The position numbers were made by a program, and so were the translations under genes. A stretch of 16,083 nucleotides of DNA from Thermoplasmatota archaeon (lineage in GTDB: Archaea > Thermoplasmatota > Penumbrarchaeia > Penumbrarchaeales > Penumbrarchaeaceae): the NCBI GenBank assembly GCA_965234725.1, contig CBDDUX010000085.1, forward strand, positions 1 through 16,083. Direction: 5' to 3'. This document shows, piece by piece, positions 415 to 16,039 of the stretch. The notes under the pieces are model-generated. The model was not told the DNA's origin. It did no database searches and saw nothing but the letters and a program-made list of their open reading frames with translations. Positions within the stretch are counted from its first letter, which is position 1. Every line of letters starts with the position of its first letter.

Positions 415-481
415 AACATTTAATACTTCCTGATAGTTCCAAATCTGATTAGTGATAGAATGTTTCAGTAGGTCATCCCAA
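415..481. repeat. Repeat P, copy 1 (orphan copy of the paralog upstream region)
   Basis: 59/67 identical, ungapped, to 4290-4356. Confidence 0.9.
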
Positions 482-542
482 AGTTGAATTAAGGTGATCC
501 CAATCTTATTTTCAAATGTAGATTTTTCTCTTTATAACGAGG

Positions 543-2348
543 TCATTCCTCTTTGCTATCTTCAGATATCTTGTCCTTTTTACTCTTACTCAAGGTAACT
601 GCAATGACAGCAATTATTGCAATAAGGATCAGCAATCCACAAAGACCACCAAATATTGGAAGAGCAGCGGAAGCCAGTTTTGAATCACTTTCAGCATCTT
701 TATTTTTATTTTTAAGGATGAAATTTCTTTCCTCGTAATCAATCTGATTCCCCAACCAATCGAAATTCTCAACTCTGACGGTATATTCCGAACTAGGTAG
801 ATTTCTTAAACCCAATTCTGCACTTATTGACCTGCCATCGGATTCTTCAGTCAACACAACCTTACCGTTTGAGTCTGTAACTGTGACCTGTGTTCTTCCT
901 ACCAACATTTTTCCTGCAATATCGTTCTTGTCTACACCAGCGGTGTCGATTTGAACAACCCCGTTCGCTTCAAATGTTTCTTTTTGGTCAGGGTAAAGAT
1001 CCAATATTTTCGAAAATTGATCATCCTCTACCCACCATAAATGTGACATAGTCATTATGTTGTCTTTTCGTTTTGGATCAGGTGTTGGAGGTTTCACCAT
1101 GTCAGAAGTATCCGTGATAGTAACACCCTCTCGATCTGCTATGACTGCGGTGGTTGTTTCTGGTAGTATTACAACATCGAAGATCCCTTGAAATTGGGGC
1201 TCTTGGTACGTCAGAATCACATCAATATATTCCTCGGTTTTCGCGTCATATACAGGGGAGGTGTACGTGACCGGTTCAAGAAAGGTCCTTAACTCGAAAC
1301 CGGTGGAAAAACCACCTTCCCAATTTGAAACCTTCTCATTTGAATTATCGAAATGAAATAATCCAATATTTCCTCCTTGGAAAAAAGGTCCAACTTCTTC
1401 TGAAAATCTTGGATGGATATCAAGTATTCGAGTTTCAATGTATACTTGGTTTTCCCCTGATCTGGTGATCTCTTCTCCTTGTGAAAGGAAGGCAGTTGGA
1501 AGATGAATGAATTTCGAAGTATCGTCTCTATCAAAACAGGCAAGATAGTAATCCTTACCTGTGGATGTTTCATTAAAATGGAATGCGACATAGATATCTC
1601 GTGTTGTGGTATCATACAGGAGTGAAAAGATCTCTCCGATCGGTGTGTATCCACTTTTATTGGCGATATCAGTTACATTGAAGATCTCAGTTGAAATTGT
1701 GTTTGTACTCAAATCCAAGGTTTGGATGTTCATATTTGTTTGGGTCCTTGTTGTAGAGAACCATAGCAGATTCTCTGTTGGTTCCTGGAAGAAGTCCAGA
1801 ATTCCTCCAGGCTTCAATCCTGAGTTCTTGTCCAGTTTGGTTGTGATATTCTGTGATCCGACATCGATTATCCATAGTCCATCATTACATGCAAGATATA
1901 GCGTATTCGTATCCGCATTGTATTCAAGATCATTGATCACATTTGCATAGTAATTCAACCACATCCTCTGGATGGTTCCATTCGATAGCCATATTGTTTC
2001 AAGTGTAGTCCTGTAGGCTTGATATCCACTACCTGTGATGGCAAACAGTACATTGTCATCTTCGTTGTAATGTATCTGATATACAGAGTTAGATTCAATA
2101 TCAGGTGCGGTTATATGCTCAATTGTATCGTTGTTTCTGTGGATCAATGATATTCCATAGTGCCCTGTATATGTTACAATAATAAGGTTACCATCTTGAC
2201 CTACCTCGACATGTTTTGGTTCACCTTTCAAAGGTGTCATAGGATCTTCTGTTGTAATGGTCTCGGTTTCAGCGTTTGCTATAACTGGGATAATTAATAA
2301 AAAAACGAACAAAAACGCTATTGTACATGCCAAATGTCTATCTTTCAT
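543..2348 (-). CDS. Secreted, C-terminally membrane-anchored beta-propeller-like protein (paralog A, 601 aa)
   Basis: Probable start is MKDRHL at 2348, preceded by a GGGGG RBS-like run and followed by a signal peptide. Blade-like motifs (LYLACNDGLWIID, ILDFFQEPTENLLWF), an Ig-like segment, then a TM helix and basic tail. Paralog of 2474..4240. Confidence 0.8.
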   Translation of the reverse strand: MKDRHLACTIAFLFVFLLIIPVIANAETETITTEDPMTPLKGEPKHVEVGQDGNLIIVTYTGHYGISLIHRNNDTIEHITAPDIESNSVYQIHYNEDDNVLFAITGSGYQAYRTTLETIWLSNGTIQRMWLNYYANVINDLEYNADTNTLYLACNDGLWIIDVGSQNITTKLDKNSGLKPGGILDFFQEPTENLLWFSTTRTQTNMNIQTLDLSTNTISTEIFNVTDIANKSGYTPIGEIFSLLYDTTTRDIYVAFHFNETSTGKDYYLACFDRDDTSKFIHLPTAFLSQGEEITRSGENQVYIETRILDIHPRFSEEVGPFFQGGNIGLFHFDNSNEKVSNWEGGFSTGFELRTFLEPVTYTSPVYDAKTEEYIDVILTYQEPQFQGIFDVVILPETTTAVIADREGVTITDTSDMVKPPTPDPKRKDNIMTMSHLWWVEDDQFSKILDLYPDQKETFEANGVVQIDTAGVDKNDIAGKMLVGRTQVTVTDSNGKVVLTEESDGRSISAELGLRNLPSSEYTVRVENFDWLGNQIDYEERNFILKNKNKDAESDSKLASAALPIFGGLCGLLILIAIIAVIAVTLSKSKKDKISEDSKEE

Positions 2349-2397
2349 AACGACCCCCCACAGATCTAATAAATATCCAATTGACAAACTAAGATTT

Positions 2398-2449
2398 AAC
2401 ATATAATACTTTTTAATGGTTCCAAATCTGATTAATGATAGAATGTTTT
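2398..2449 (-). promoter_or_regulatory. Repeat P, copy 2; contains the BRE/TATA-like promoter of paralog A
   Basis: Minus strand reads AAAAAGTATTATATGTT about 50 bp upstream of the ATG at 2348. Near-identical to 4290-4341. Confidence 0.65.
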
Positions 2450-2473
2450 CATTTTTTTTGTCCCTTTGGGTAT

Positions 2474-4240
2474 CTAGTCTATCTTCTTCTTGTTTAAAAA
2501 TACCAAGATTGCAGCAATTATTATACCAAGGATCAATAATCCGCAAAGACCACCAAATATTGGAAGAACTGCCGAAGCCAGTTTTGACCCACTCTCACTT
2601 TCAGATGGTTGATCAGGATTGTCCAGGATGAATTTACATTCCTCATAATCTATTGAATTACCGATCCAATCCGATCTTTCAACTCTTATGGTATATTCAG
2701 AACTTTTCAAACCAGATAATTGAAATTCCACTTCCATTTCTCTACCACCCGTTTCATGGGTATAAACCACGTTTCCTTTTGAGTCGGTAATGGTCAGTAA
2801 TGATTTGCCGATAAAAAATGAATCTAACGGATCTTCTCCTTCAAAGTCTTTGGTCAAGATCGAAATGTATCCTTCTGCTTTCACAGTTTCAATTTTCTCT
2901 TTATCCATATTTAATGACTTTCCAGCATCACTTTCATTTTTATAATATTCTGCCAGGAAGAGGCCACCTTTGATCTTAAGCATGGTTTTTGCAGGAATTA
3001 CCATATCGCCCAGATCATAGAAATATAAACCTTCAGATCGGCTGACAGTAGCAGTCGTTGAATCGGTTTCTACAACCACATCGTTTGGTCTCTCGATTTC
3101 CGGTTCTTCGTAATCTACTTCAATATCAACCCATTTCTCAGTCCCTTTGTCAAATCTAACTGAAGGACGTCTCACCGTTTTTGTGAAGGTTTTTATATTC
3201 AGCTCATCATCTGTTGTAGAGATCTTTTTAATCGGGGGATCAATATAGAATAGCCCTATTCCATATCCGCTGAATAAAGGACCCACTCCATTTTTGTTCC
3301 TTGAATGCATCCTGTTGATATGGAATATCTTCCAACCCAGATAATCATCGGATCTGGTGACCTCTTTCCCCTCTGAAAGATAGCCGGTGGGGAGAGGGAC
3401 AAAGTGTGATGTATCATCTCTGTCAAAACACGCCAAATGGAATATCTCACCTGTTATTGTTTTGTTGAATTGGAATCCAACATAGATATCTCGTGTGGTA
3501 GTATCATAGATGAATGTCAAGATAGGACCTTGTGGTGTGTATCCATTCCTAATAGCAATATCTGTTACATTAAAGATCTCGGAAGAAACTGTATTTGTAC
3601 TCATGTCCAGGGTCTGGATGTTTACATTATCCTTCGACCAGGATGTGACAAACCATAACAGGTTTTCTGTAGGTTCTTGAAAGAGGTCCCACACACCTTC
3701 AGATTTCAATCCGGTGTCTTTGTTCAATTTTTCAGTTATTTCCAATTCATCCACATCGATTATCCAGAGACCATCAGCGCATGCGAGATATAGTGTATTG
3801 GTAAATGCATTGTATTCCAGATCTGAAACTGAGGGTGCATAGTAATTGAGCATCACTTTTCCAATTGTATCGTTGTCAAGCCAGATGATCTCAAGTGTTG
3901 TATATCGGTTATCAAATCCAATACCTGTGACAGCAAATAGCACATTGTCATCTTCGTTGTAATGAATCCGATGTACCGAGCCTGAATGAATGTCCGGTTC
4001 AGTGATGTGCTCTATCGTATTGTCATTTCTGTTGATTATTGAAATTCCATAGTTATCTTGGTAGGATAAGAATATCAGGTTCCCGTCCTGTCCTGTTTCA
4101 ATATATTTTGGTTCACCCTTCAGAGGTGTCTCCGGATCTTCTGTTGTGATCATCTCCACTTCGCTGTTTCCCATCGCTGGGATCAAGGCAATAAAAATGA
4201 ATATGAACGCTGTTGCAACTGCCAATGAGCTCTCTTTCAT
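2474..4240 (-). CDS. Secreted, C-terminally membrane-anchored beta-propeller-like protein (paralog B, 588 aa)
   Basis: Probable start is MKESSL at 4240 with a GGGGGA RBS-like run. Signal peptide, the same motifs as paralog A, and the shared anchor SKLASAxLPIFGGLCGLLIL. Confidence 0.8.
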   Translation of the reverse strand: MKESSLAVATAFIFIFIALIPAMGNSEVEMITTEDPETPLKGEPKYIETGQDGNLIFLSYQDNYGISIINRNDNTIEHITEPDIHSGSVHRIHYNEDDNVLFAVTGIGFDNRYTTLEIIWLDNDTIGKVMLNYYAPSVSDLEYNAFTNTLYLACADGLWIIDVDELEITEKLNKDTGLKSEGVWDLFQEPTENLLWFVTSWSKDNVNIQTLDMSTNTVSSEIFNVTDIAIRNGYTPQGPILTFIYDTTTRDIYVGFQFNKTITGEIFHLACFDRDDTSHFVPLPTGYLSEGKEVTRSDDYLGWKIFHINRMHSRNKNGVGPLFSGYGIGLFYIDPPIKKISTTDDELNIKTFTKTVRRPSVRFDKGTEKWVDIEVDYEEPEIERPNDVVVETDSTTATVSRSEGLYFYDLGDMVIPAKTMLKIKGGLFLAEYYKNESDAGKSLNMDKEKIETVKAEGYISILTKDFEGEDPLDSFFIGKSLLTITDSKGNVVYTHETGGREMEVEFQLSGLKSSEYTIRVERSDWIGNSIDYEECKFILDNPDQPSESESGSKLASAVLPIFGGLCGLLILGIIIAAILVFLNKKKID

Positions 4241-4289
4241 AACGATCCCCCACAGATCCAATAAATATCCAATTGGCAAACTACAACTG

Positions 4290-4356
4290 AACATATAATA
4301 CTTTTTGATGGTTCCAAATCTGAGTAATGATAGAATGTTTTAGTAGGTCCTCCCAA
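4290..4356 (-). promoter_or_regulatory. Repeat P, copy 3; contains the BRE/TATA-like promoter of paralog B
   Basis: Minus strand reads AAAAAGTATTATATGTT about 50 bp upstream of the ATG at 4240. Homologous to 415-481 and 2398-2449. Confidence 0.65.
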
Positions 4357-4494
4357 TGATAATGATTTTCCTATACGATCATGATTATCAACACCTGTTA
4401 TCTGGCCGATCTGTGATTGATCATGCATTATCTGGTTTGTAGAGCATGAAATGTTAGAAAATAACGAAGTCACAAATCGATTTGAAAGATTCAA

Positions 4495-4908
4495 TCATGA
4501 TATTTTTAAATCCACTATTCCCGTGATCTCTCTCATTTTCTGGATCGTTCTTTCCGAAGGTTCCTCATTGACCATAATGAAGTAATATGGTGGATCATGA
4601 TAAGGCCCATCCAGTGTGTCTATCTCAAGAAGGTCCATAAGATCTTCGATCCCATCAAGATCATCCTCGAATTTCTCTGGGTCCTTCACATATATTCGGA
4701 TGAAAAAGAGTGTTCCATCTTCTTTTTGTTTCTTCATCTTCCTTTGGTCATCCCTGTAAGAGTGCAATTGGTGAGATGAAAGTGTTATTCTGGGTAACGG
4801 ATCTCCCTGCCATCCACAAAAAGTACATTTATTCATCTTTTTTCCTTTATCATTCGAAAATGATTCGATATCAAATATCCTGCAATCTGGACAAATGGGG
4901 CCACTCAT
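4495..4908 (-). CDS. Zn-ribbon protein with a possible ACT/ferredoxin-like C-terminal domain
   Basis: CPDC...CTFCGW at the N-terminus. The C-terminus shows an alternating strand/helix pattern ending TIQKMREITGIVDLKIS. TATA-like TTATATAT about 25-30 bp upstream suggests a leaderless transcript. Confidence 0.7.
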   Translation of the reverse strand: MSGPICPDCRIFDIESFSNDKGKKMNKCTFCGWQGDPLPRITLSSHQLHSYRDDQRKMKKQKEDGTLFFIRIYVKDPEKFEDDLDGIEDLMDLLEIDTLDGPYHDPPYYFIMVNEEPSERTIQKMREITGIVDLKIS

Positions 4909-4978
4909 TATATCGAGATAAAATGAGAAATATCAATATATAATTCCTTCTAGTATTTTCACTAAAGAAAGATTCATT

Positions 4979-5359
4979 CTAATCGCCAATATTCAAACCC
5001 AGTTCCACATCAAGGTCTTTGATCCGTGTTATCAATGCGGATCTAATATCGAAATCATATAGAATAATATCCTTTAAAAGGGAAATATATCTCTCTCTTT
5101 TGGCAACTGCTTCCTCGATTTGATTGAAATCAGATAGGTCCATTTCATTCATGATATTGAGGATCATCCTAAAGGATGATTCCCGATCCATCATTTGAGC
5201 TTGTCTGAAACCGGGTCCTGAATTCATGCATTCTGGACAGTTCCCTTTGGTCTCCGGGTAGATCAGGTCACAGTAGATACAACTTTGAATGGCTCCCTGC
5301 TCGGGTTGATTTGGAATCTGAGATAGCTCTTCCATGAACTCATATGTGAATTCATGCAT
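4979..5359 (-). CDS. Hypothetical Zn-ribbon protein
   Basis: 126-aa ORF with CIYC-x9-CPEC and a helical C-terminus, co-oriented with its neighbours. Confidence 0.7.
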   Translation of the reverse strand: MHEFTYEFMEELSQIPNQPEQGAIQSCIYCDLIYPETKGNCPECMNSGPGFRQAQMMDRESSFRMILNIMNEMDLSDFNQIEEAVAKRERYISLLKDIILYDFDIRSALITRIKDLDVELGLNIGD

Positions 5360-5389
5360 TTTATAGGTTCACTCTATTTGTTATTGTAA

Positions 5390-5731
5390 TCAACCATGAA
5401 GTCCTTCGAAAATGAAAAAAAGTAGTTCTCCCACTTCATACTGGCCCTCCCAGGGGGGACGATTGGGTGTAATAATATATTGAGACGATATTTCGATCTT
5501 CCCATCTCCAAGGTATTTCAAATTGCCTCTGTATGGAATTCTTTCTTTGGTTTCCCTTACGGTTTTTATCGATTGAATGTAGTAATATTCATCTGATTTT
5601 AATTGATCCAGACCGGGTCCGGAAGGATATTTATTCAGATCAAATTTCAAATAGTAATTATCATTATCTTTACAAATAATACCAATGTACATTTCACTTT
5701 CCTTCATATCTTCGATCGATAACATTTTCAT
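5390..5731 (-). CDS. Hypothetical protein
   Basis: 113-aa ORF with GAGGT just upstream, separated by short gaps from co-oriented neighbours. Confidence 0.65.
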   Translation of the reverse strand: MKMLSIEDMKESEMYIGIICKDNDNYYLKFDLNKYPSGPGLDQLKSDEYYYIQSIKTVRETKERIPYRGNLKYLGDGKIEISSQYIITPNRPPWEGQYEVGELLFFIFEGLHG

Positions 5732-5766
5732 ACCTCATATCCTAATCCAATTGGATGAGAATTATC

Positions 5767-6066
5767 CTAATCTACTTTCTTAATATTCCTATGATAACTA
5801 CCAAGTGTTTCAATACTCGGTGAATATGTTTCTTCAATATAGAATCCTTTTTCAGTTGGATCCATGAATTCATTTTCTGTAATTTCCTCTGGATCAATAT
5901 CAATAACCGATTGTAACTTATCAAGATCCCCTGGATCCTCAATTAAATAATAAAATTTCGTCTCTTCAATAATTTCATAACTTTCACATGAACATGCTTT
6001 GGGTGGCAGAGGATATTTCTTTTTACAATTTGGACAGATATAAGGTTCGTTTGAATATTTGATCAT
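5767..6066 (-). CDS. Hypothetical Zn-ribbon protein
   Basis: 99-aa ORF with CPNC-x10-CSC and an acidic C-terminus. Confidence 0.65.
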   Translation of the reverse strand: MIKYSNEPYICPNCKKKYPLPPKACSCESYEIIEETKFYYLIEDPGDLDKLQSVIDIDPEEITENEFMDPTEKGFYIEETYSPSIETLGSYHRNIKKVD

Positions 6067-6085
6067 AATCAGATGAAGGTTTCAT

Positions 6086-6103
6086 CCACAGATAAATCTG
6101 TGG
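6086..6103. promoter_or_regulatory. Palindromic operator candidate
   Basis: Perfect inverted repeat CCACAGAT-aa-ATCTGTGG 20 bp upstream of the start at 6066. A second IR, GATGAA-ggt-TTCATC, is adjacent at 6072-6086. Confidence 0.4.
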
Positions 6104-6275
6104 GTATTGACCATACGTTCTTGTAATAATTGAAATCAATAAAATATTGGTTTACTAGATAGCAGATTAAAACGATCTTGAACTGGAATAAATTGGCCAG
6201 AGATAAATCACTAGTCGAGTGCCAACCATTGAGGTGACGGGATCTCACTACATTTTGCCATATTCAAGGGTTGAA

Positions 6276-6296
6276 GTGTCAGGGACTGGGTTTGAA
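6276..6296 (-). repeat. att-like tRNA 3'-end fragment, copy 1
   Basis: Minus strand reads TTCAAAC-CCAGT-CCCTGAC-A-C: 7-nt T-loop, 5-nt T-stem strand, 7-nt acceptor strand, discriminator. Confidence 0.65.
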
Positions 6297-6419
6297 AGAA
6301 TCCTTAAAACTTCCAGAAAATCAAAGATTTTCCTTACATTGAAGGTTGTGATCTTCAAGATGTCAAAAAGGTATCAAAAATTAAAGAATTTATCTGAATT
6401 GCCTTCGGGAGAGATCAGA
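6297..6419. repeat. Conserved cassette left end, type A, copy 1
   Basis: Homologous to 8912-9037. Contains hairpins GAAAATC-aaa-GATTTTC and TTGAAGGT-tgtg-ATCTTCAA. Confidence 0.85.
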
Positions 6420-6726
6420 CTGGAAAAGGAAAGGGCCCGGTTTCCGAGCCTACTTATTCCATCTTTGACCATTTGTTAATTAATTCATCCAAAGGATAGC
6501 AGATTCCATTATTATACTCGCGGAGTAATCTATAGAAAAAAATGTCAAGGGAATAATAAATTGATATGATATTTATTAAAAAGTGAAAAAAAAGTTATCT
6601 TCATGAACATCTCTGCACTTGATTCGGCTAAATTATTTTCATATAGGTATTTAAAAGGCCACTCTTAAAATCTAAAATTATATATTCCTTCAATGCTTAT
6701 ATATCTATCAATTAGGTGGAGATGAA

Positions 6727-8577
6727 ATGAAAAGAATCTGGATATTGATACCGTTCATACTAATTGGTATGCTTCTCATACCCTCCATTATCTGGGCAGA
6801 GAAGACTGATGAGCTTCCGATCAGGGTCATTGTAATGTTCCAAGAGAATGTAGATCCATATTCCGTTGTGACCGAGGATGATGTACAATTAGAACTTGAG
6901 ATCATCAACGGAGTAGCAATGATGGCAACCCCGGCAAAGATTAAAACTTTGAAGAATAGAGATGATGTCAAGTCGATTACAATGGATAATCCGATTAAAG
7001 CTGCAGAATCCACACCTTACACAAGACTCCCATGGGGTGTAAACAGGATGGATGCGGATATGGTCTGGAATCATGTCGATCCTGATACAAGTGTGGGAAA
7101 TGGTGTGACAGGGGATGGGATCCATGTTGCTGTTCTGGACACGGGGATAGATCTCGATCATCCTGATCTGGTCAGCAACATAGGTACGGGAATTAACTAT
7201 GTCCAGACGGTCAACCCACGTGGAAAGGTCATGTCATACGATCCCACCGCATTCGACGATGATAACGGACATGGAACCCACTGCGCTGGGATCATTGCCG
7301 GTGATGAAGCTAATGTTGGTAACGGTATGATAGGTGTTGCTAGGGATGCTACGGTCCACCCTGTTAAAGTTCTGGACAAGAACGGGAACGGATACACCAG
7401 CTGGCTTGTGAGCGGCATTCAGTGGTGTGTAGATGATGGCAATATAGATGTCATATCCATGTCACTCTCGTCCACATCAAGTGATCCGAACGTCGAGACT
7501 GCCTGCAATGTTGCGGAGTCAGAGGAAATCATTCTTGTTGCAGCTGCTGGCAATTACGGAGATGGGGATCTGGATACTGATGAGATCGAATATCCTGCTT
7601 CATACAGCAGTGTGATCTCTGTCGGCGCAACTGACCGTCACGATGTTCTTGCTGAATTCTCCTCATCAAGTCCTTATGTGGAAGTTGCAGGACCAGGGGT
7701 AGACATCTACTCGACCTATATGGGAGACGGATACGCGACAATGAGCGGAACATCCATGGCTTGCCCTCATGTCGCTGGGACGGTAGCATTGATGCTGGAG
7801 AGTGGGATCCCACCTATTTCTGATAACGAGGAGGTGTTGGATGTCCGAGATAAACTGACTTCTTTAGCTGATGATATCGGGGTTTCTGGTTGGGACTCCG
7901 GATCTGGAGCGGGTCTGGTCGATGCTCTAATAGCATGTGGTTTCGATGACAATTTCGCACCCATGATAATAGAGGTAAGTTCGGTCGTGACAGATGACTC
8001 CGCCACCATCAGCTTCCTCACCGATGAGCCCGCTACGGCCGGGATAGAATACTGGGCGGAGGGAGAAACAACTCATTCCGACTCCTCCGATTCAATTGAT
8101 AAGATCTATCATTCCATCTACATCAACGACCTTGAAGAAGGTACGAAGTACTTCTATCAGATCTCGGCCGTAGATCTCTCAAATAATCTAGGGGGAGAGG
8201 AAAGGGCGGAAAATAGAGAGTTCACCACCACCGGTGGAGTAACGCCACCTCCAGATGAAGATGCCATGCATGTGAAGGACATTTCGGTAACTACAAGTAC
8301 CAAAGGTGCGAACAAGTATATCGCCACAAAAGTACTCATCGTTGATTCTTTGGGGGTTGCAGTGGGTGGTGCAACTGTTACCTTAGAGATCACTCTTGGA
8401 TCTGATACCATTTCCACATCAAGTTCAGTCACCGGATCAGATGGATATGCTTCCTTCAGTCAAAAGGTGAAATCCACTGGAATATACACCATTGTAGTCA
8501 CGGGAGTTGTGAAGACCGGTTGGATATACGACAGCTCAAGCGACGAAGTGACATCGGCTGAAGCTAAATTCGATTGA
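6727..8577 (+). CDS. Secreted S8 (subtilisin-family) serine peptidase with C-terminal Fn3/Ig-like domains
   Basis: Signal peptide, propeptide and catalytic triad motifs VAVLDTGID, NGHGTHCAG and SGTSMACPHVAG. Oxyanion motif AAAGN. RBS-like AGGTGGAG upstream. Confidence 0.95.
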   Translation: MKRIWILIPFILIGMLLIPSIIWAEKTDELPIRVIVMFQENVDPYSVVTEDDVQLELEIINGVAMMATPAKIKTLKNRDDVKSITMDNPIKAAESTPYTRLPWGVNRMDADMVWNHVDPDTSVGNGVTGDGIHVAVLDTGIDLDHPDLVSNIGTGINYVQTVNPRGKVMSYDPTAFDDDNGHGTHCAGIIAGDEANVGNGMIGVARDATVHPVKVLDKNGNGYTSWLVSGIQWCVDDGNIDVISMSLSSTSSDPNVETACNVAESEEIILVAAAGNYGDGDLDTDEIEYPASYSSVISVGATDRHDVLAEFSSSSPYVEVAGPGVDIYSTYMGDGYATMSGTSMACPHVAGTVALMLESGIPPISDNEEVLDVRDKLTSLADDIGVSGWDSGSGAGLVDALIACGFDDNFAPMIIEVSSVVTDDSATISFLTDEPATAGIEYWAEGETTHSDSSDSIDKIYHSIYINDLEEGTKYFYQISAVDLSNNLGGEERAENREFTTTGGVTPPPDEDAMHVKDISVTTSTKGANKYIATKVLIVDSLGVAVGGATVTLEITLGSDTISTSSSVTGSDGYASFSQKVKSTGIYTIVVTGVVKTGWIYDSSSDEVTSAEAKFD

Positions 8578-8820
8578 AAGATGGGTTAATAAAGGTAATA
8601 TACCCGAGAAGTCAGGTCCAACTTGTGTTATCACTTATTAATACTTACGCATCTATAAGAAGCTTCCATATCTTGAATAGGAAAGGTAAGAAGAATTCTC
8701 CCCCTGCGAGGACCTCTATGGCGTTCCTGCTCTTGAAGTTGATGAAGAAGGATTGACAACTTCAGAGTTGAAAGACTATATTCACGAACAGATCGAGGAT
8801 CTTGAAGGAAAAGAATGAGG

Positions 8821-8890
8821 TGTCAGAGACGAAAATTGATGTCAACATTGGAAAAATATATATATTTATTCTAATATAATATTCAATAAA
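8821..8890. repeat. Conserved cassette right end, copy 1
   Basis: Aligns with 11624-11691 (TGTCrGrGACG...CAACATTGGAAAA(A)TATATA...ATAAT...). Abuts att-like copy 2. Confidence 0.8.
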
Positions 8891-8911
8891 GTTTCTGGGA
8901 CTGGGTTTGAA
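8891..8911 (-). repeat. att-like tRNA 3'-end fragment, copy 2
   Basis: GTTTCTGGGACTGGGTTTGAA, 19/21 identical to copy 1. Confidence 0.6.
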
Positions 8912-9037
8912 AAGACCCTTAAACTTCCAGAAAATCAGAGATTTTCCTTACCTTTGAGGTAGTGACCTCCAAGATGTCAAAAAAGATACTCAAAATGAAT
9001 GAACCTCTTCTGGATGCCTTCAAGATAGATGATCAGA
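8912..9037. repeat. Conserved cassette left end, type A, copy 2
   Basis: Homologous to 6297-6419, with both hairpins retained. Confidence 0.85.
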
Positions 9038-9140
9038 TCAAACTACTAAATCATATACGATCTCAGATGTTATTTGGGTGATTCCCATGAGAATGGAACA
9101 GGTCCAATCAGGAAGTCCTCCCGAAAAGGACAGGAAATAA

Positions 9141-11360
9141 TCAATCAACAGTGAGAGTATACGGTACGGAGAAACTCCCGTCAATGGTCTGAAATTCAAT
9201 ATATCCAGTCACCGATTCTGGATCCATGGATCCGGAAAATCCCGTGAACATCTCGCCACCTTTTTGCTTCACAGAGAACCTCGATGTTGTCCCCGATACG
9301 GACTGATCGATGTTTATCGGTCCATCCGATGGTATACAAGCGATATGCGGACATCCACCAACCCCTGTGGCCGACCATTCTCCGGAGAACTGAAGCATTC
9401 CGGCCATCTTCCCGTCCTCCTGCACTTCTGCAAAAAAGGTGCCGGTCATGACAACATAATATTCGAACGTGCTCGCAACTACACCGCACAGCGGGCAATT
9501 GGTCGTCCGTGTGAACGTAGCCGAGCCATCAAACGTTCCCGAATAGGCTATCCGGCCGGGCAGGACCTGAGGGATAGCGTCCTCAAACGGAATGCTCGAC
9601 CCGTCCTTTAAAATGCACAGTTTCTTGACGGGTGCGCCAGGCTCACCCTTGAAAAGTGTCCTCAGCTCATCTGATGTGCTGGACATCTTGTTGTCAGTGA
9701 GCACCACTCCTCCCCTAGGTTCTCCGGCTCTGAATCTTTTGGCCTCCTCCAGTCCTTCATCGAACTTCTTGAGAAGGCCAAGCTGGTCCTTGAACAGCGC
9801 TATCACCGGAACTCCCATTTTGTCGTCGGAGACGGTTTCCAACGCAGTCTGCAATGTTCCCGAGGGAGTCGGGATCTCACCGGTCGCCAGTTGGGTGAGC
9901 CATGATGTTCCCACCGCGATTGCCACTTGAGCCGCGAGCCCTATCGCAAGCGGAGCCCCGCCGACGATACCTGTTACCATATTGAATAGACCGTAGCAGA
10001 ACTTACCTGCCGCAGGGACCAACTCACTGCCGATCTCGTACTGCTTCATCGGTATCTCCCTGAACTGTCTATAATCCTCCCTCCAGGATTCCGGCAGCTC
10101 ATCACCAGAGACCGGGTCAGACCTCGTGAATGATCCCGCACGGGTTTCGTTCGAGGGGAATACATTGACGATACGATGCACGGTGTTCAGGAGCAATCTA
10201 TCCATTTCTATTATGCCCTCAGTATCCATCAGGGTCGTTTCGTAGTCGATCGTATTCAGGGCGATCGACCCCCGATCTCCCGCAATCAACTCATCCAACT
10301 GGAGCATCAACTCTGCGAGCGATGTACGATGGTCCCACAAACGGGAGATTAAGTCTGGGTCCGTAGCATTAGTGAGGATCTCATCCAAGCTGTCCAGGCA
10401 GGCAGAGATGAATAGATGTGTGTATACTCCGGTTCTGATCGTATCACCCATCTCCAGCATGGGCCTGATCTCCAGACCCTCCAGGACGTTGGAGGTCATG
10501 ACCCGGTCCTTTGAAACCTGTACGACCTTCACATCGGTCCTTCCGCTCAGGAACCGGTCCGAACCGTTCAGGAAAGGCGGAACCACGACCTCAACCCTTT
10601 TCTCATCCGCATATGTCGCGGGGATCAATACGGTAATGCCACCATCTTGCCCCGTGAAGGCCACAGATATCGCGGAGCCTTCGGGATCGAAGCCCGAGCC
10701 CGTAATATTTAACAAGGTCATTGGATCCACACTTGAAGCTCCCATAGAATCGATGTGGATGAATCGGACCTTCTCTTCATGATCGACCGCGTAGAATACA
10801 ATTACACCTGTGAAAATCGTAAGGAGGAGAAGAACGACTAAAATAATGGTGACCGTTCCCATACAAATTATAGGTCCCTTGAAACTCGTCTCCTTACAGG
10901 CTGAAGAATGTGAGTTCCTTGAAGGACCTTTGTCGGGGCTTGTTTGTTTTTTAGTGACATGTGGTCTGACCTTGGGGCTATTTTTTTCTTCGACTGTACC
11001 AGAGGTCTTTTTCTTTGATCGTCTTGATATTACTACTACCAAGATGATAATGAGTAGGATCAGTAACGCTCCACCTGTCATGCATGAACCACAAATGAGG
11101 ATCCTTACCAGGATTGAGATAAGGGTCAGATCCTTCCCCGAAAGCTGATTTGTCGAATTTGAAGGATCGATCCAAGTGTTATTTTCTTCGTCATTTTCGG
11201 AGGGTCCGATTGTGTTGTTGGCAGATAGGATCTCCCTGGAAGGATTGATGATCGTGGATCCGCCCTCTAACGTGTCGTTGCCCATGATTGGGAGGACAGC
11301 GATCAGTGTGACGGTAATCATGGCTAAAGAAAAAATCAGAATGAAATATCGTTTCAGCAT
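9141..11360 (-). CDS. Membrane-anchored protein with an IPT/TIG-like domain
   Basis: 739-aa ORF with an N-terminal signal and two further hydrophobic helices. LLNITGSGFDP...VAF...RVEVVVPP is IPT/TIG-like. The C-terminus is beta-rich with four Cys. Confidence 0.75.
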   Translation of the reverse strand: MLKRYFILIFSLAMITVTLIAVLPIMGNDTLEGGSTIINPSREILSANNTIGPSENDEENNTWIDPSNSTNQLSGKDLTLISILVRILICGSCMTGGALLILLIIILVVVISRRSKKKTSGTVEEKNSPKVRPHVTKKQTSPDKGPSRNSHSSACKETSFKGPIICMGTVTIILVVLLLLTIFTGVIVFYAVDHEEKVRFIHIDSMGASSVDPMTLLNITGSGFDPEGSAISVAFTGQDGGITVLIPATYADEKRVEVVVPPFLNGSDRFLSGRTDVKVVQVSKDRVMTSNVLEGLEIRPMLEMGDTIRTGVYTHLFISACLDSLDEILTNATDPDLISRLWDHRTSLAELMLQLDELIAGDRGSIALNTIDYETTLMDTEGIIEMDRLLLNTVHRIVNVFPSNETRAGSFTRSDPVSGDELPESWREDYRQFREIPMKQYEIGSELVPAAGKFCYGLFNMVTGIVGGAPLAIGLAAQVAIAVGTSWLTQLATGEIPTPSGTLQTALETVSDDKMGVPVIALFKDQLGLLKKFDEGLEEAKRFRAGEPRGGVVLTDNKMSSTSDELRTLFKGEPGAPVKKLCILKDGSSIPFEDAIPQVLPGRIAYSGTFDGSATFTRTTNCPLCGVVASTFEYYVVMTGTFFAEVQEDGKMAGMLQFSGEWSATGVGGCPHIACIPSDGPINIDQSVSGTTSRFSVKQKGGEMFTGFSGSMDPESVTGYIEFQTIDGSFSVPYTLTVD

Positions 11361-11623
11361 GGAGAGACCATCTTATGGACGCCTGTTGATTTAGATTTAT
11401 GGAGTTGTCTTGTTATTAATGGCTTCTTCTTCCGTTATAAAAAAAATAAAAATGGAACGGGATCTGGATATTCTCCCTGATCGATATTGGGAATATCTCT
11501 ATTGAGTTCCAGTTCCGAATAAATACGTAAAATGATTGACAACCAACGAGTTATAATACTAATTAATGTAAAGGTGCAAGAACTCTTAGGATCAAAATAA
11601 AGTGAAGGGTTCTAACTCTCAAA

Positions 11624-11691
11624 TGTCGGGGACGGAATCTTTGCCAACATTGGAAAATATATACAATAATTTTAAGATAATGGTAAAATAA
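11624..11691. repeat. Conserved cassette right end, copy 2
   Basis: Aligns with 8821-8890 and begins with an internal partial att motif, TGTCGGGGACGG. Confidence 0.8.
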
Positions 11692-11707
11692 GTGTCGGGG
11701 ACGGGGT
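11690..11707 (-). repeat. att-like tRNA 3'-end fragment, copy 3
   Basis: AAGTGTCGGGGACGGGGT, an exact 18-bp direct repeat of 11966-11983. Confidence 0.75.
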
Positions 11708-11965
11708 CCTCTTCCTCATCAATTACAATTTGATTCCGCAAAACCTTCGGTTTTGCTCAGGTTGAGCATTTTTGATCGTCGATTCCAAGACACCAGATGC
11801 TCAACCACCTGGACCGATTACATATTAATTATTGGGGTTCAATCTATGAAAAATCAAAGATTTTTCAGACCTCCTCGCCCCTTATAAATTCCAAATTAAT
11901 CTTCCACTCGGAGGACCCCTAAGTCACCGAAAACTACTATCTACCATTGCTTAACAATGGTAGTA
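11703..11965. other. Gene-less, highly structured mini-unit between two att-like repeats
   Basis: Closing IR GGGGTCCTC (11703-11711)/GAGGACCCC (11911-11919). Hairpins at 11738-11756, 11760-11806, 11847-11867 and 11941-11963. Confidence 0.6.
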
Positions 11966-11985
11966 AAGTGTCGGGGACGGGGTTT
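11966..11985 (-). repeat. att-like tRNA 3'-end fragment, copy 4
   Basis: AAGTGTCGGGGACGGGGTTT; the minus strand reads AAAC-CCCGT-CCCCGAC-A-C. Confidence 0.75.
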
Positions 11986-12130
11986 ATCTAGTTAAGTCAA
12001 ATGATCTGGAAAATGCTCCGAAAAACCCCTTTTCGAGAAAAGATTTCCGAGCGGATGACGGATGGAAGCGAACGGACCGAGATATAAAGAAGCCCCTTTC
12101 AATGCGTCGGGAGGGGCCTCGCTCTTTTAA
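11978..12130. repeat. Conserved cassette left end, type B, copy 1
   Basis: Homologous to 15720-15875, with an identical 27-bp block (12021-12047 = 15762-15788) and a GC-rich hairpin at 12089-12120. Confidence 0.9.
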
Positions 12131-12146
12131 TTTCCTTTAAAAAGAT

Positions 12147-12698
12147 TTATTCCTTATACTTCAATATCTCCTTCTTCAATCTCAGGAAAGTTTCCTTATC
12201 GATATGTTCTTCAGAAAGATCCTTAACAAGAAGTAAAAGCATCTCATCAATTATTAAATCACGATTAATGATTCTATAGCAGATCTCATCACCATTTCTT
12301 TTCTCAATAATTATCTTTTTTCGGAGAAATTGATCAATGGTATAGGAAATTTTTCTTTTATTTTCCGAAGTTAAATTCAGAAGTTCGCCTCTTGTGATAT
12401 TCGGTCTTGTTTCTATCAGCTTCAATATCCTTTTCTGATATTGTTTGAGTGAAGATTGATAGGTTTCATAACCGTTATTTTCACCGATGAACAAGGATGC
12501 AAAATAACAATTTTTTCCATTCTTAAGACATGATCTGATATTATCTTCTTTGATCAGGAAATTCAAATGGTATCTCAATGTTCCTTTGTTAAGGTTGAGC
12601 ACATTCTTTATCCTCCCAAAGGTGGCTCCAGGATTATCCCTGATATAATTGAAGACCAGTTCCCTGTTCCTGTTATCAGGTGAAGATTGATTTTTCAT
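12147..12698 (-). CDS. Tandem winged helix-turn-helix transcriptional regulator (COG3398-like)
   Basis: NRELVFNYIRDNPGATF...LNKGTLRYHLNFL, then a second wHTH, QKRILKLIETRPNITRGEL...ISYTIDQF. Probable start MKNQ at 12698 with RBS-like AGGTGG; the ATG at 12734 is an alternative. Confidence 0.88.
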   Translation of the reverse strand: MKNQSSPDNRNRELVFNYIRDNPGATFGRIKNVLNLNKGTLRYHLNFLIKEDNIRSCLKNGKNCYFASLFIGENNGYETYQSSLKQYQKRILKLIETRPNITRGELLNLTSENKRKISYTIDQFLRKKIIIEKRNGDEICYRIINRDLIIDEMLLLLVKDLSEEHIDKETFLRLKKEILKYKE

Positions 12699-12730
12699 AA
12701 GGTTAAAACCACCTTCGCTGAATTCTCTCC

Positions 12731-15451
12731 TCATTCTTCAGAGCCGTCAAGTACACTGAGTGCCGAAAGAAAAATCCTTCGGTCAATAATTCCATTTTCG
12801 TATTTTTTTCTTAGATTCCGTCTCAATTTTCGTTTGGCATTTTTCTCCATATCAAGTTCTTTGAACGAAAGGGCTCTGTTTTCAAGAACTCTGAGATACT
12901 TCTCATCTTTGAAATTCATATCTTCCAGGATCTCTGGATCACAGTCTAACTCACTAATAGAGGTCATATGGACATTCCTATATCTCATCCTACCGGTGCC
13001 TTCAAGTTCGAGAAGACCAAATTTTACTTCAATCTCATTGTTAGGATAGCTTGGAGGTCCATCGGGAGATCGAATATTAATGGCTCCAGGCGTACCCATA
13101 TGATCCTCTATTGTATTATCGGAAATTCGTCCCCTTATCTTTCTCTTAAAGATTACAAAAGAAATGACAATTGATACCACCAGGACAATAATGAGAATAA
13201 TAAATATCAAGATCCCGAGATTGAGATCATGATCCGGATCTACTCCTGCATCGGTTTCTTTTACCATGACCTGTCTCGATATATTGATCCATTCGCCCTT
13301 TGCATCTGTTATCCTTAAAGTGAGGTTGTATTCACCTGCTGATAGGTTCAACAGGATCGAGAGACCATATCCCGCGATCTGATTTTCATCAAGGAACCAT
13401 GTGAAATTCAGATCCTCAAGATCAAGATCATTTAACAAACTAGTGTTCAAGGAAAAGGTCTGATTCCTGCCTTCAAATATTTCTTCATCACCAAGATCGA
13501 TGCCAATATCCAGGTCTTCGATATCCTCGACCATAATCCCTTTGATCACTTCAAATTGGAGAATGGCAGAATCAGTACCTCCATTTCCATCTTGTACAGA
13601 TATGTTTACCCAATAGGTTCCAACTTGTGATATGGTTGGAGTACCAGAAAGTAACCCGGTCGAATTATCTATCACGAGAAAACTGCAGTTGGTAGTGAGA
13701 GACCACACTAAAGTGTTATTTGTGGGATCGATGTCATGAGCCATGACAAGGAACAAATATGCATTCAATGCTTTAGCATCTGGAAGAATACTTGTGGTTA
13801 TCCTTGGAGGATCATTAACATTCCAGACTATCAATGTATAATTTAGATAGCGAAGAGCTTCCCCGCTGGCAACCGAGACATTGACAAAGTAACTTCCCAC
13901 ATCATCATTTACTGGAATTCCATTGATAACTCCAGTTGCTTGATCTATCTGGAGGAATGAAGCATTCGTTGTGAGGGACCACGTAATGGCTTCATCCCAA
14001 CTGGCATCGAAATCCATGAAATAGTGACTGTCCTCAAAACAGTAGTTCATATCCGATGACTCGTTGTATATAATTCTCAAAGGAGCAGGATCTCCCGGTA
14101 ACACGGTTATTGTGAAATTAATGAATAATTGTGATTTCTCGTCTTCAACTGTAATGTTCACCCACCAATCTCCAACATCCGATGGTTTTGGATTCCCACA
14201 GAGGTCATAAAATGGAGGGTTTAAAAGTTGAAGCCATGTTGAATTGGTACTGAAGGTCCATTCAAGATCGTCCAAAGGTGTATCGGCGTCTATAAATTGA
14301 TTACCATAACTATCAAAGATTGTGCCCCCTACATTCACTTCTTCTCGTTTCACACCCCTGAACACAGGTGGATAGTTTGTAGTATGGGGTGATACAAGAG
14401 GATATCTATCTTTTGAATTACCACATTCATATGGTATATCAAATGTACCATTTGGCAGAGCATTTGCAGAAGAATATCTTTTTGCATAATCATTCCAATA
14501 ATTACCCAATTCGATCAGACCCCAATAACCCCAATAATTTATCGAACCCGCTTCCGCTTGAACTCCCCCGTCATTATTGGAATAGAAATTGTTGCCGATA
14601 ATCCGATTCCCGTCACTTGAGACTATTCTGATTCCAAGTCCATTGCAATCCTTAATATTGTTTCTCATAATATTATTTCTATCGGATCCATTACTGATCG
14701 ATATTCCAATACCTTTGCTCCCTTCAATCGTAGAATTCACTATCTTATTCTTGATCGAATTATTGATTTCTATGGAGTTTTGCCCGGAGTAAATAATTGA
14801 ATTTCTAATTGAGTTTAGGCTCCCATCAATAATCCTTATCCCAGATGTATTCCCGGTGATAATACTAGTATCAATTGTAATATTCTTTGATTGCTGGATA
14901 TTGATTCCAAATCTGTATGCGCTTATATCACACTTTTCGATGGTTACTCCATCACCATTTCGAAGATCGATCCCGGCAAGGCTGTGGTTCTTGATTTTGC
15001 ATTCTTTAATCTCGGTTCCTGGTTCTGAATTATTGTTAAAATGGATCCCTGACCAATTGTAAGATAAAGGGTCATCCATCTGAGAAGCTATTCCTGAGAT
15101 GTTTAAACGTTCGATCGAACAATATGAGGTGTTGATGGAGATTACATGACCTTTACCGTTTCCTTTGATAATTGGAAGATCTGGAATTGCTCCAACAAGT
15201 TTCACATCCTTATCGATTACAATATTTTCATTGTAGACACCAGGTGACACGAATATCGTTTGGTTCTCCCCTATGGTCGAATTATCGATCGCCTCCTGAA
15301 TAGTTGAAAAATCTAAATCAACCCCCACATAGAAAGTGGACGATCTAGACACCTTTCCTTCCGATCCCGATGATGGAAGATGCATCACAGGGAAAATCGA
15401 CATAATAACAATAAGGATGAGGGCCATTATCGATCGAATTTTGATATTCAT
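12731..15451 (-). CDS. Cell-surface protein: NosD/CASH-type parallel beta-helix, cadherin/putative-Ig repeats, PKD-like domain, C-terminal TM helix
   Basis: Signal peptide, FSTIQEAID...IFVSPGVYNENIVIDK, GI-x-I...N-x-I-xx-N repeats and GNYWNDY. Three Ig-like repeats ending G-x-P...VG-x-Y/W-x-VN. TM helix before a basic cytoplasmic tail. RBS-like GGAGTGA. Confidence 0.9.
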   Translation of the reverse strand: MNIKIRSIMALILIVIMSIFPVMHLPSSGSEGKVSRSSTFYVGVDLDFSTIQEAIDNSTIGENQTIFVSPGVYNENIVIDKDVKLVGAIPDLPIIKGNGKGHVISINTSYCSIERLNISGIASQMDDPLSYNWSGIHFNNNSEPGTEIKECKIKNHSLAGIDLRNGDGVTIEKCDISAYRFGINIQQSKNITIDTSIITGNTSGIRIIDGSLNSIRNSIIYSGQNSIEINNSIKNKIVNSTIEGSKGIGISISNGSDRNNIMRNNIKDCNGLGIRIVSSDGNRIIGNNFYSNNDGGVQAEAGSINYWGYWGLIELGNYWNDYAKRYSSANALPNGTFDIPYECGNSKDRYPLVSPHTTNYPPVFRGVKREEVNVGGTIFDSYGNQFIDADTPLDDLEWTFSTNSTWLQLLNPPFYDLCGNPKPSDVGDWWVNITVEDEKSQLFINFTITVLPGDPAPLRIIYNESSDMNYCFEDSHYFMDFDASWDEAITWSLTTNASFLQIDQATGVINGIPVNDDVGSYFVNVSVASGEALRYLNYTLIVWNVNDPPRITTSILPDAKALNAYLFLVMAHDIDPTNNTLVWSLTTNCSFLVIDNSTGLLSGTPTISQVGTYWVNISVQDGNGGTDSAILQFEVIKGIMVEDIEDLDIGIDLGDEEIFEGRNQTFSLNTSLLNDLDLEDLNFTWFLDENQIAGYGLSILLNLSAGEYNLTLRITDAKGEWINISRQVMVKETDAGVDPDHDLNLGILIFIILIIVLVVSIVISFVIFKRKIRGRISDNTIEDHMGTPGAINIRSPDGPPSYPNNEIEVKFGLLELEGTGRMRYRNVHMTSISELDCDPEILEDMNFKDEKYLRVLENRALSFKELDMEKNAKRKLRRNLRKKYENGIIDRRIFLSALSVLDGSEE

Positions 15452-15665
15452 ACAGAATCACTCCATATTTGTTTTCAAAGAAAGGATATAAGAACAGTAT
15501 TTAGATAAGTTATCAACCAGGTTTTTTGTATATCTGGCCTAGATGGTTTATATTAAATTTGTGTGAAATTGATCGTTCTTTTTCAAGTGATTTATATTCT
15601 GAAAAAAACCTGTAACTGGTACGAATTGAGATTTGGACATTTGATTCTCTCGTGTTCAAACACTG

Positions 15666-15700
15666 TGGTGTCGTATAACTATGTCATGGTGTCGTAAAAC
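15666..15700. repeat. Tandem 14-bp direct repeat TGGTGTCGTAwAAC with a 21-bp period
   Basis: 15666-15679 and 15687-15700 differ at one position. Confidence 0.75.
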
Positions 15701-15719
15701 AACCCCAAATTTTGTAGAT

Positions 15720-15875
15720 CGGGGTTTAATGAAAAAAGCTAAAAAACAAGAAAAAGGTCTAAAAAACCCCTTTTCGAGAAAAGATTTCTAAGCGGATGAT
15801 GGAAAGAAGAGATTCGGACCAAGAAGAAAAAGAAGCCCCTTCCAAACGTGTCGGGAGGGGTTTCGCCCATTTTTT
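15720..15875. repeat. Conserved cassette left end, type B, copy 2
   Basis: Homologous to 11978-12130. The hairpin at 15832-15864 is followed by a T-run. Confidence 0.9.
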
Positions 15876-16039
15876 TTCTTCCTGTTTTAAAAATGAAAGT
15901 AGGTTTTGGTTTCATTCCATTTTGCATTGTTAATTGAGCTTATGCAACTGGAAGACATCATTCGAAATCAAATTATTACATGCCTCACAATAAGAGTGAA
16001 AAAATGAAAAATTAATCTATAATCCGAAAAAACAAAAAA

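Follow-up and report, generated by a model that had tools for sequence, protein, structure and literature searches.

Direct repeats of a tRNA(CAU) 3' end delimit an array of integrase-less segments in a Thermoplasmatota archaeon

How does a row of short gene segments, each set off from the next by the same small direct repeat and none encoding a recombinase, come to lie at one place in an archaeal genome? The question is raised by a 16,083-nucleotide stretch of a Thermoplasmatota archaeon (contig CBDDUX010000085.1 of assembly GCA_965234725.1; the window, by which we mean this whole stretch), in which such an array begins at position 6276. An initial annotation of the window had proposed an integron-like system of minimal cassettes mobilised in trans. 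We find that the repeat is the end of a tRNA(CAU) gene and that related archaea carry the same repeats beside that tRNA, one of them together with a complete integrase gene; the window array was probably built by serial site-specific integration (tandem accretion) at one tRNA, followed by decay. The general phenomenon of tandem accretion, with integrase-less remnants bounded by attachment (att) sites, has already been described, and this archaeal case from the Thermoplasmatota adds to it; keyword searches of the literature gave no description of such an array in Thermoplasmatota, which is not proof of absence.

The repeat and its tRNA

The window was scanned on both strands with the 18-mer GTGTCGGGGACGGGGTTT, allowing up to three mismatches and using 200 shuffles as a control. 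Four matches were found against a shuffle mean of 0.01, with none of the 200 shuffles reaching four, and all are on the plus strand, confirming the recurrence in one orientation at 6276, 8891, 11692 and 11968 that had been reported initially. A second scan with an edit distance of up to four, indels included, and block shuffles as the control gave seven plus-strand matches and none on the minus strand (shuffle mean 0.37, maximum 2). It adds copies at 11623, 69 nt upstream of 11692, and at 15848, with a 2-base deletion, together with a four-edit match at 9822 within the gene for a 739-amino-acid (aa) protein that is probably due to chance; a degenerate core-like copy also lies about 70 nt upstream of 8891. 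No core copy lies inside a credible gene, as the initial annotation had held, the sole open reading frame (ORF) to overlap one (6219-6479, 86 aa) having no family match. The copy described there as vestigial, at 15720, is real but is better seen as a junction that has lost most of its core: GTAGATCGGGG, a sequence that precedes an intact core in a related locus (L014), is here fused straight to TTTAATG. The cores and junctions of the window, lettered A to E, are:

Core copy A, 6276..6293, plus strand: 16 of the 18 bases of GTGTCGGGGACGGGGTTT; reverse complement of the tRNA(CAU) 3' end.
Core copy B, 8891..8908, plus strand: 15 of the 18 bases of GTGTCGGGGACGGGGTTT.
Core copy C, 11692..11709, plus strand: 16 of the 18 bases of GTGTCGGGGACGGGGTTT, the mismatches being the last two.
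Core copy D, 11968..11985, plus strand: exact GTGTCGGGGACGGGGTTT.
Junction E, 15716..15737, plus strand: core largely deleted (GTAGATCGGGGTTTAATG), judged by eye against the left flank and core at 718 of L014.

A genome collection was scanned with the exact 18-mer AAGTGTCGGGGACGGGGT, each match being taken as a locus with up to 10 kb on either side. Of the 27 loci found, 17 (from 15 contigs and 13 metagenome-assembled genomes, MAGs) resemble the window around the motif, and nearly all of these are labelled Thermoplasmatota, Thermoplasmata or Thermoplasmatales. The other ten, from bacteria or one Micrarchaeota MAG, have only the 18-mer in common with the window, and we estimate that their number is about what chance predicts for a collection of this size. 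Three of the loci (L005, L008 and L020) belong to one contig, CAWEDU010000013.1, and were merged to 25.7 kb after their overlaps had been checked to be identical; we refer to this as the relative contig, or the relative.

In ten related Thermoplasmatota loci (L001, L004, L010, L011, L018, L019, L021, L022, L024 and L026) the motif adjoins the reverse complement of an intact, intron-bearing tRNA, found by ARAGORN in its intron mode and scored at 52-55 bits by the Rfam tRNA model RF00005 in all five of the loci submitted. The Infernal alignment gives an anticodon loop of CUCAU plus a 46-nt insert and places CAU at positions 34-36; the anticodon is therefore CAU, and a G1-C72 pair, as judged by eye, makes this an elongator tRNA-Met or a tRNA-Ile2. 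The label Ser(AGA/CGA) and odd intron position that ARAGORN assigns in intron mode were rejected in view of this placement and of the short variable loop. In its default mode ARAGORN misses the tRNA in these loci because of the intron, and islands anchored at a gene that is missed in one mode and mis-parsed in the other are easily overlooked.

The motif spans the end of the T-loop, the 3' strands of the T-stem and of the acceptor stem, the discriminator base and three to five trailer bases, which is the classic position of an att core at a tRNA end. Read from the sequence, the repeats are att cores, namely the last ~18-23 bases of a minus-strand, intron-containing tRNA(CAU) gene, and the proposal that they are tRNA 3'-end att repeats is borne out. 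Among relatives, the intact target tRNA is present in L019, L021, L024 and L026, and an FG-GAP gene is seen after the tRNA in these four loci and in L010. No tRNA was found in the window by ARAGORN in default or intron mode, by a 20-nt pattern for the 5' half of the tRNA, or by an Rfam scan on E-values. Exact copies of the motif are limited to one or two contigs per MAG, and in both the window and the relative they occupy one strand; this is stacking at one locus, as first suggested, and not the distribution of a miniature inverted-repeat transposable element or other dispersed repeat.

Segments, arms and an integrase in relatives

The segments between the cores, here called cassettes, have the following contents:

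Cassette 1, 6727..8577, plus strand: gene for a secreted S8 subtilase with Ig-like C-terminal domains (Pfam Peptidase_S8, E=1.4e-56).
Cassette 2, 9141..11360, minus strand: gene for a 739-aa membrane protein without a confident family in profile scans.
Gene-less element of 276 nt, 11692..11967, plus strand: no ORF; its non-core part (11710..11967) ends in left arm type y.
Cassette 4, 12147..12734, minus strand: gene for a winged-helix transcription regulator of 195 aa (Pfam HTH_HVO_0163_N, 3.9e-08; HTH_24, 1.6e-06).
Cassette 4, 12731..15451, minus strand: gene for a 906-aa beta-helix (NosD-like)/He_PIG surface protein (Pfam Beta_helix, 3.4e-24; NosD, 4.5e-20; He_PIG, 8.6e-17).

These contents agree with the initial account of one subtilisin gene, one membrane-protein gene, no gene and a two-gene unit, save for the IPT label of the 739-aa protein: an IPT/TIG domain is not detected by Pfam at E<=0.01, and the label is not confirmed. 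The two genes of cassette 4 overlap by 4 nt. Cassettes 1-3 sit between cores with zero to three mismatches, and cassette 4 has lost its right core; the array genes lie on strands +, -, -, -, with upstream regions of 250-450 nt. None of the 13 window ORFs matches a recombinase family in Pfam, NCBIfam or PHROGs, and a tblastn search with the integrase described below returned nothing from the window at E<=10, so that the segments are indeed without a recombinase or a remnant of one. The GC content of the subtilase gene (0.42-0.53; window 6750-8550) and of the 739-aa gene (0.47-0.57; window 9150-10800), against 0.26-0.41 for the arms and 0.31-0.41 elsewhere in the window, suggests that the cargo of cassettes 1 and 2 is foreign and was acquired from a higher-GC donor. 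The gene-less element is 90-91% identical to 17563-17679 plus 17691-17761 of L008, 77% to 9763-10020 of L021 and 71% to L014. We note that L004, from a clade labelled Candidatus Saliniplasma, has two cores 119 nt apart (9077-9196) beside its tRNA, a tiny gene-less insertion analogous to window 11692-11967.

Sequence comparison also confirms that adjacent segments have conserved ends in common. These arms, with the gene-end remnants that accompany some of them, are all given on the plus strand:

6174..6275: left arm at core A (blastn, window 6174-6415 against L020 15927-16169, 74%).
6294..6470: right-of-core arm of family 1, long form, at core A; 81% identical to 8903-8983.
8703..8822: remnant of the end of a surface-protein gene, with no long ORF left; 84% to L008 17372-17491 and 73% to L024 963-1186.
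8819..8890: left arm type x at core B, with a degenerate core-like copy ~70 nt upstream and an AT-rich stretch (repeat family D10).
8909..9085: right-of-core arm of family 1, long form, at core B, from sequence comparison.
11497..11691: second gene-end remnant and left arm type x, with a degenerate core at 11623-11640; 73% to L024 970-1181.
Within 11710..11967, before core D: left arm type y, an inverted box like a tRNA T-arm and then the hairpin CTACCATTGCTTAACAATGGTAG.
11986..12134: right-of-core arm of family 2 at core D; 84% to 15750-15812 and 87% to L007 4158-4324.
15640..15719: left arm type z, with repeated GGTGTCGTA boxes; same arm type in L026 and L003.
15738..15878: right-of-core arm of family 2 at junction E; 87% to L020 17976-18135; it contains a T8 run and, at 15848-15863, a core copy that has lost 2 bases.

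The order of core, P' arm, cargo, P arm and core has, by analogy, the look of integrated lambda-like elements, and the arm at 15738..15878 opens one more segment, which continues past the end of the window. Family 1, to the right of 6276 and 8891, is about 180 nt long and aligns with ten additional copies, found in the relative contig, in L002 and, with a looser fit, in L026; the alignment thus holds 12 copies, from four MAGs and the window, that surround unrelated cargo and occur in long and short mosaic forms. One hairpin of this arm (window 6340-6360 and 8955-8975; alignment columns 90-103) is variously GAGGT/ACCTC, GAGGC/GCCTC and GAAGG/CTTC, both sides having changed with the pairing preserved, and the arm ends in a GC-rich hairpin whose sequence varies while its pairing is kept, with T-rich runs flanking it on both strands, which may be a bidirectional terminator. 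RNAalifold gives family 1 a weak consensus (-6.3 kcal/mol), the compensatory changes being confined to local hairpins. Small ORFs in these arms (MSK... and MKE...) were rejected as genes, as their frames are not conserved across the 12 copies.

Family 2, which follows core D (11968) and the junction at 15720, measures about 150 nt and recurs in L007, L014 and the relative contig; the copy at core D ends in what appears by eye to be a degenerate core-like box (~12104-12121) and then a T-run. Locus L007, a whole contig of 4.8 kb binned as Promethearchaeota, has two cores and family-2 arms 86-87% identical to those of the window; it is probably a mis-binned Thermoplasmatota fragment, or else a sign of transfer. 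The sequence to the right of 11692 is a third arm type. On the left of the cores, arm x is made up of a degenerate core-like copy, CAACATTGG and an AT-rich stretch, and is accompanied by the truncated 3' end of a surface-protein gene that is intact both in L024, where the matching segment covers the end of a He_PIG/fn3 ORF (64-1074), and in the relative, where it is the end of ORF 17083-17487 of L008. In arm y the hairpin varies in sequence among loci with its pairing kept, six pairs being changed on both sides, and core, inner hairpin and inverted box together form a long imperfect palindrome (window 11905-11985; L008 17681-17761; L014 445-525; L021 9940-10020; L019 1546-1626; L020 11336-11416). 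The inverted box resembles the T-arm and acceptor end of another tRNA, and the palindrome could be the terminator of once-convergent tRNA genes or part of a recombination site. In arm z, a box resembling TGTCG(G/T)GGTTC is directly repeated three times at a spacing of about 20 nt. The phage and plasmid collections gave no DNA match to window 11600-12140.

The recombinase missing from the window is represented at the same site in a relative. The L026 locus has a 4.75-kb element with a core on either side, at 22 and at 4773, the second of which adjoins the tRNA. The element encodes three small ORFs (one a LITAF-like zinc ribbon) and a 388-aa tyrosine recombinase (3543-4709; PF00589, E=3.3e-36) that has an N-terminal SAM-like domain and whose gene stops 64 nt short of the core. 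The right-of-core arm of the element can be aligned with the family-1 arms of the window, and arm z sits between the integrase gene and the core. The integrase gene is whole while the element is integrated, and the enzyme is therefore not of the suicidal kind known from Sulfolobus spindle-shaped virus (SSV), nor are there integrase fragments beside the window cores of the kind that an SSV-type split into int(N) and int(C) leaves. A tblastn search with the L026 integrase finds two remnants. One, 82 aa from the C-terminus (56% identity), is next to the core in L003, which also has arm z; the other, of 28 aa (61%, E=1.8e-4), is next to the core at 16029 of L020 in the relative, just upstream of a core-adjoining arm homologous to window 6174-6275. 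The family is small in the protein collection searched, with seven proteins at 54-100% identity, and its phage relatives are XerD-like and at most 29% identical; the integrase is present in one of the 14 archaeal loci, where arrays are common. The search for a tyrosine recombinase that the initial annotation had called for thus yielded none in the window and a cognate-looking one at the same site in L026.

Turnover among relatives and the origin of the array

The relative contig shows how quickly the content of such an array can differ. The left flank is common to both, window 4911-6108 being 90% identical to L020 1-1198 and three small proteins being 77-95% identical. The relative contig has at least ten same-strand cores within 17.4 kb and ends 18 nt past the last of them, and its array carries:

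Two 191-aa ORFs and one 344-aa ORF.
ParE with a small partner, a DUF2202 protein and two AbiEi/AbiEii pairs.
A homologue of window gene 543-2546.
A cluster of DUF7948, beta-propeller and He_PIG surface proteins.
A gene-less element 90-91% identical to window 11692-11967.

None of the four cargo proteins of the window array has a counterpart in this array beyond He_PIG-type domains. Besides the gene-less element and the arms, only one of the 12 window proteins (par1, 85% amino-acid identity) recurs in the relative; there it belongs to the array, and in the window it does not. The whole 25.7 kb holds no PF00589 protein. Content is thus almost wholly different next to a flank of ~90% identity. 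A near-empty site is seen in L024, whose surface-protein gene is succeeded at once by arm x, a single core and the tRNA, with no cassette between, and L018, L022, L001 and L011 have a single core each. Dispersed copies, a fixed gene order and the lack of a matching tRNA or empty site had been named beforehand as grounds for abandoning the proposal; none of these was encountered.

Toxin-antitoxin and abortive-infection modules abound in the cargo beside cores in relatives (ParE; AbiEi/AbiEii, at three sites; MNT/HepT), at 11540-12108, 16320-17881 and 18289-20016 of L020, 9251-9914 of L001 and 2964-3989 of L007, and judging by these genes the locus may double as a defence island. Two relatives have a giant eukaryote-like acetyl-CoA carboxylase between the left flank and the array (L020 1303-7645 and L021 1697-8023), of 2108 aa in L021 and split into five ORFs in the relative contig; the window has no such gene, its flank running straight into the array (6066-6276). 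Farther left in the window, genes 543-2546 and 2474-4294 are tandem paralogues of ~50% amino-acid identity, as compared via the relative, in a region (415-4356) with three copies of a 67-nt block upstream of them, at 415, 2398 and 4290. The orthologue of 543-2546 lies inside the array of the relative, beside the integrase-tail remnant, and seems broken there. Between these genes and the array are five small minus-strand ORFs (4237-6066; 85-137 aa) without a family match, three of them being those with identities of 77-95% in the relative; the last, 5767-6066, has by eye a CxxC...CxC spacing like that of a zinc ribbon.

We propose the following history. A tyrosine integrase, non-suicidal and of a lambda- or pNOB8-like kind, would insert small circular elements into the 3' end of the tRNA(CAU) gene. 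With each insertion the core of the element would restore the tRNA, leaving one displaced core copy behind, and its left arm would supply the tRNA trailer, arm y for example offering a hairpin and then T-rich sequence on the strand of the tRNA. Later insertions, at the tRNA or at any earlier core, would stack elements in one orientation, and deletions would remove integrase genes and parts of the cargo to leave short segments between cores and conserved arms; the window would then represent four to five such integrase-less segments. We infer that an integrase of the L026 type built the array of the window, and the order of events and any present-day mobility are inferred with it. Accretion followed by decay is indicated by the integrase and gene remnants, by the decayed and deleted cores and by the nested degenerate cores: truncated gene ends lie at window 8703-8822 and 11497-11600, the core of junction E is deleted, cores with a 2-nt deletion are nested in family-2 arms, and family 1 has mosaic forms. 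All of this looks like wear rather than design, and the idea that the segments are purpose-built minimal cassettes is not upheld.

Several observations weigh against this history. The window has no intact tRNA, integrase or integrase remnant and its array runs off the right end, and the tie to the tRNA locus and to an integrase therefore rests on relatives. No scanned locus has two exact copies 276 nt apart, the genome of the window itself being outside the scanned set. The only complete integrase element, in L026, is from another species than the window, and no window cassette has both L026 arm types together. Core decay is ungraded along the arrays of both the window and the relative, so that a simple history in which the oldest copy is the farthest from the tRNA fails. 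Finally, the strong conservation of the ~180-nt arms in 12 copies and the maintenance of their hairpins by compensatory changes fit retained function at least as well as passive decay.

The last two points bring us to the most serious alternative, an active exchange platform like that of an integron, in which the cassettes are functional minimal units whose arms are recognised by an integrase encoded elsewhere, and in which circles are excised, reshuffled and swapped between cells so that surface proteins and defence genes vary. It is favoured by arms conserved around unrelated cargo, by hairpins preserved through compensatory changes, by a rare integrase family beside common arrays, by the almost complete difference in content, and by core decay unrelated to distance, as expected if any core can be a target; in the relative, moreover, exact cores flank several small integrase-less segments (for example 17966-20132). 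It is opposed by the remnants of integrase and other genes inside or beside cassettes, by the state of the junction cores in the window (two or three mismatches in three of the five, deletion in one), by arm types that are mixed and mosaic instead of uniform, and by genes on both strands, each with its own upstream region. No platform integrase, attI or common promoter was seen, and for no single cassette is there evidence of a circle or an empty site. We consider this platform unlikely, though it is the alternative to be taken most seriously. In its fuller form the tRNA(CAU) locus would be a platform for integrase-less units of 0.2-5 kb with ~180-nt hairpin arms and a cargo of surface proteins, proteases and toxin-antitoxin or abortive-infection genes, excised, reshuffled and put back in trans by a rare tyrosine integrase that can use any core as a target; this version seems to us equally doubtful, and if true would amount to integron-like function reached by another route, with double-stranded att sites from a tRNA end in place of attC hairpins.

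Much less probable is an origin without site-specific recombination, in which unequal crossing-over or segmental duplication multiplied the downstream flank of the tRNA and unrelated genes drifted in. Arm x with its gene-end remnant does occur twice in the window (8703-8890 and 11497-11691), and the tandem paralogues with their repeated 67-nt block just left of the array (D1-D5) indicate that duplication has been active in the region. Yet the repeated unit always ends exactly at the tRNA-derived core and its flanks belong to several unrelated arm families, the same families occur in different MAGs, the cargo has a foreign GC content, and the integrase-bearing element of L026 is bounded by the same core. 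Least credible of all is a role for the motif in regulation or as part of an RNA, for instance as a promoter-proximal box or as the 5' end of genes in a small-RNA family, a reading which could draw on an AT-rich, TATA-like stretch ~30 nt upstream of cores B and C and on the T-runs and conserved hairpins of the arms (T-runs ending those of family 2), but which we rejected because the motif is base for base the end of a tRNA gene in relatives, cores A and D have no AT-rich box, the window has no Rfam family match (sole hit E=0.45), and the AT- and T-rich flank answers to the need of the tRNA for its own 3' trailer on the other strand.

Under serial integration and decay, cassettes 1-3, each with two recognisable cores, could in principle still be excised or moved by an integrase acting in trans from a related element, in the manner of bacterial cis-mobilizable elements; cassette 4 is fixed, because with its right core deleted it is not excisable. 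If the array is what it appears to be, it shows how uncultured Thermoplasmatota gain and replace their secreted and surface proteins and their defence genes at one tRNA that serves as a hot spot. Two relatives whose flanks are ~90% identical share next to none of their array content. The core is defined, the arms fall into three or four families, and there is a candidate integrase.

Comparison with known systems

Integrons, including those reported from archaea, consist of a platform of IntI, attI and a promoter, Pc, and of mostly promoterless, co-oriented cassettes with attC sites that are imperfect palindromes. The array of the window resembles them as a one-orientation series of short, mostly one- or two-gene units of variable content without recombinases. 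It differs in that neither the window nor the 25.7 kb of the relative has a PF00589 protein or an IntI/attI/Pc platform, in boundaries that are direct repeats of a tRNA end and not attC palindromes (as judged from the sequence, arm y alone having an inverted core-like box and a hairpin), and in genes that lie on both strands with upstream regions of their own. The locus is not an integron, and the integron-like system first proposed is not supported.

A gene-capture idea for archaea reportedly goes back to She et al. in 2001. The account in PMC8371274 describes archaeal plasmids and viruses that integrate at tRNA genes, can do so one behind another at the same locus, and frequently lose their integrase gene once integrated, so that their genes stay trapped in the chromosome. 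The classical archaeal cases involve SSV-type suicidal integrases of Sulfolobales and Thermococcales that are left as int(N) and int(C) halves; the present lineage, by contrast, has an integrase that stays whole when integrated (L026), a long series of tiny segments, and hosts that are mesophilic-looking Thermoplasmatota MAGs. Judged as an integrative element, the window has direct repeats of the 3' part of a tRNA, in five to seven same-strand copies, but no integrase of its own; an integrase next to an att site is seen in the relative L026.

In the tycheposon islands of Prochlorococcus, as portrayed in 10.1101/2020.12.28.424599, newly arrived elements with tRNA-targeting tyrosine integrases displace older ones inward, the islands are strewn with partial tRNAs and with pieces of integrase genes, and intact elements are a small fraction of the island material. 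According to the same source tycheposons are cyanobacterial, 10-20 kb in size and equipped with replication modules (10.1101/2020.12.28.424599), unlike the segments of the window. No recognisable replication module was found here, even in the L026 element with its three ORFs.

The ssrA islands of Dehalococcoides are similar in form. As outlined in PMC3146451, these tandem islands, which vary among strains, are marked by direct repeats of the ssrA 3' end, over a dozen in number, and 15 islands without an integration module are proposed to be cis-mobilizable elements (CIMEs), some of them possibly fixed. That outline also sets them apart from the window, since they are bacterial, target a transfer-messenger RNA gene, employ a serine recombinase and carry reductive dehalogenases (PMC3146451). 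Direct repeats of a small-RNA 3' end downstream of its gene, and tandem segments without an integrase, are common to the islands so described and to the array of the window.

Cassettes 1-3 of the window have the structure of CIMEs, being flanked by att cores and devoid of recombination and transfer genes, and the L026 element has the same core and a family-1-like arm, but in another species. For the islands of Streptococcus of the ICESt1 type, Pavlovic et al. reportedly described in 2004 how CIMEs arise by deletion and tandem accretion. The likeness lies in att-bounded segments without recombination genes, stacked in one orientation at one target and derived by deletion from autonomous elements; the differences lie in the archaeal host, the tRNA(CAU) target, the smaller (0.3-3.8 kb) and more numerous segments, and the lack of a known conjugation partner. 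The picture of tandem accretion and CIMEs drawn from Streptococcus, Dehalococcoides and Prochlorococcus would in this way extend to a poorly studied archaeal phylum.

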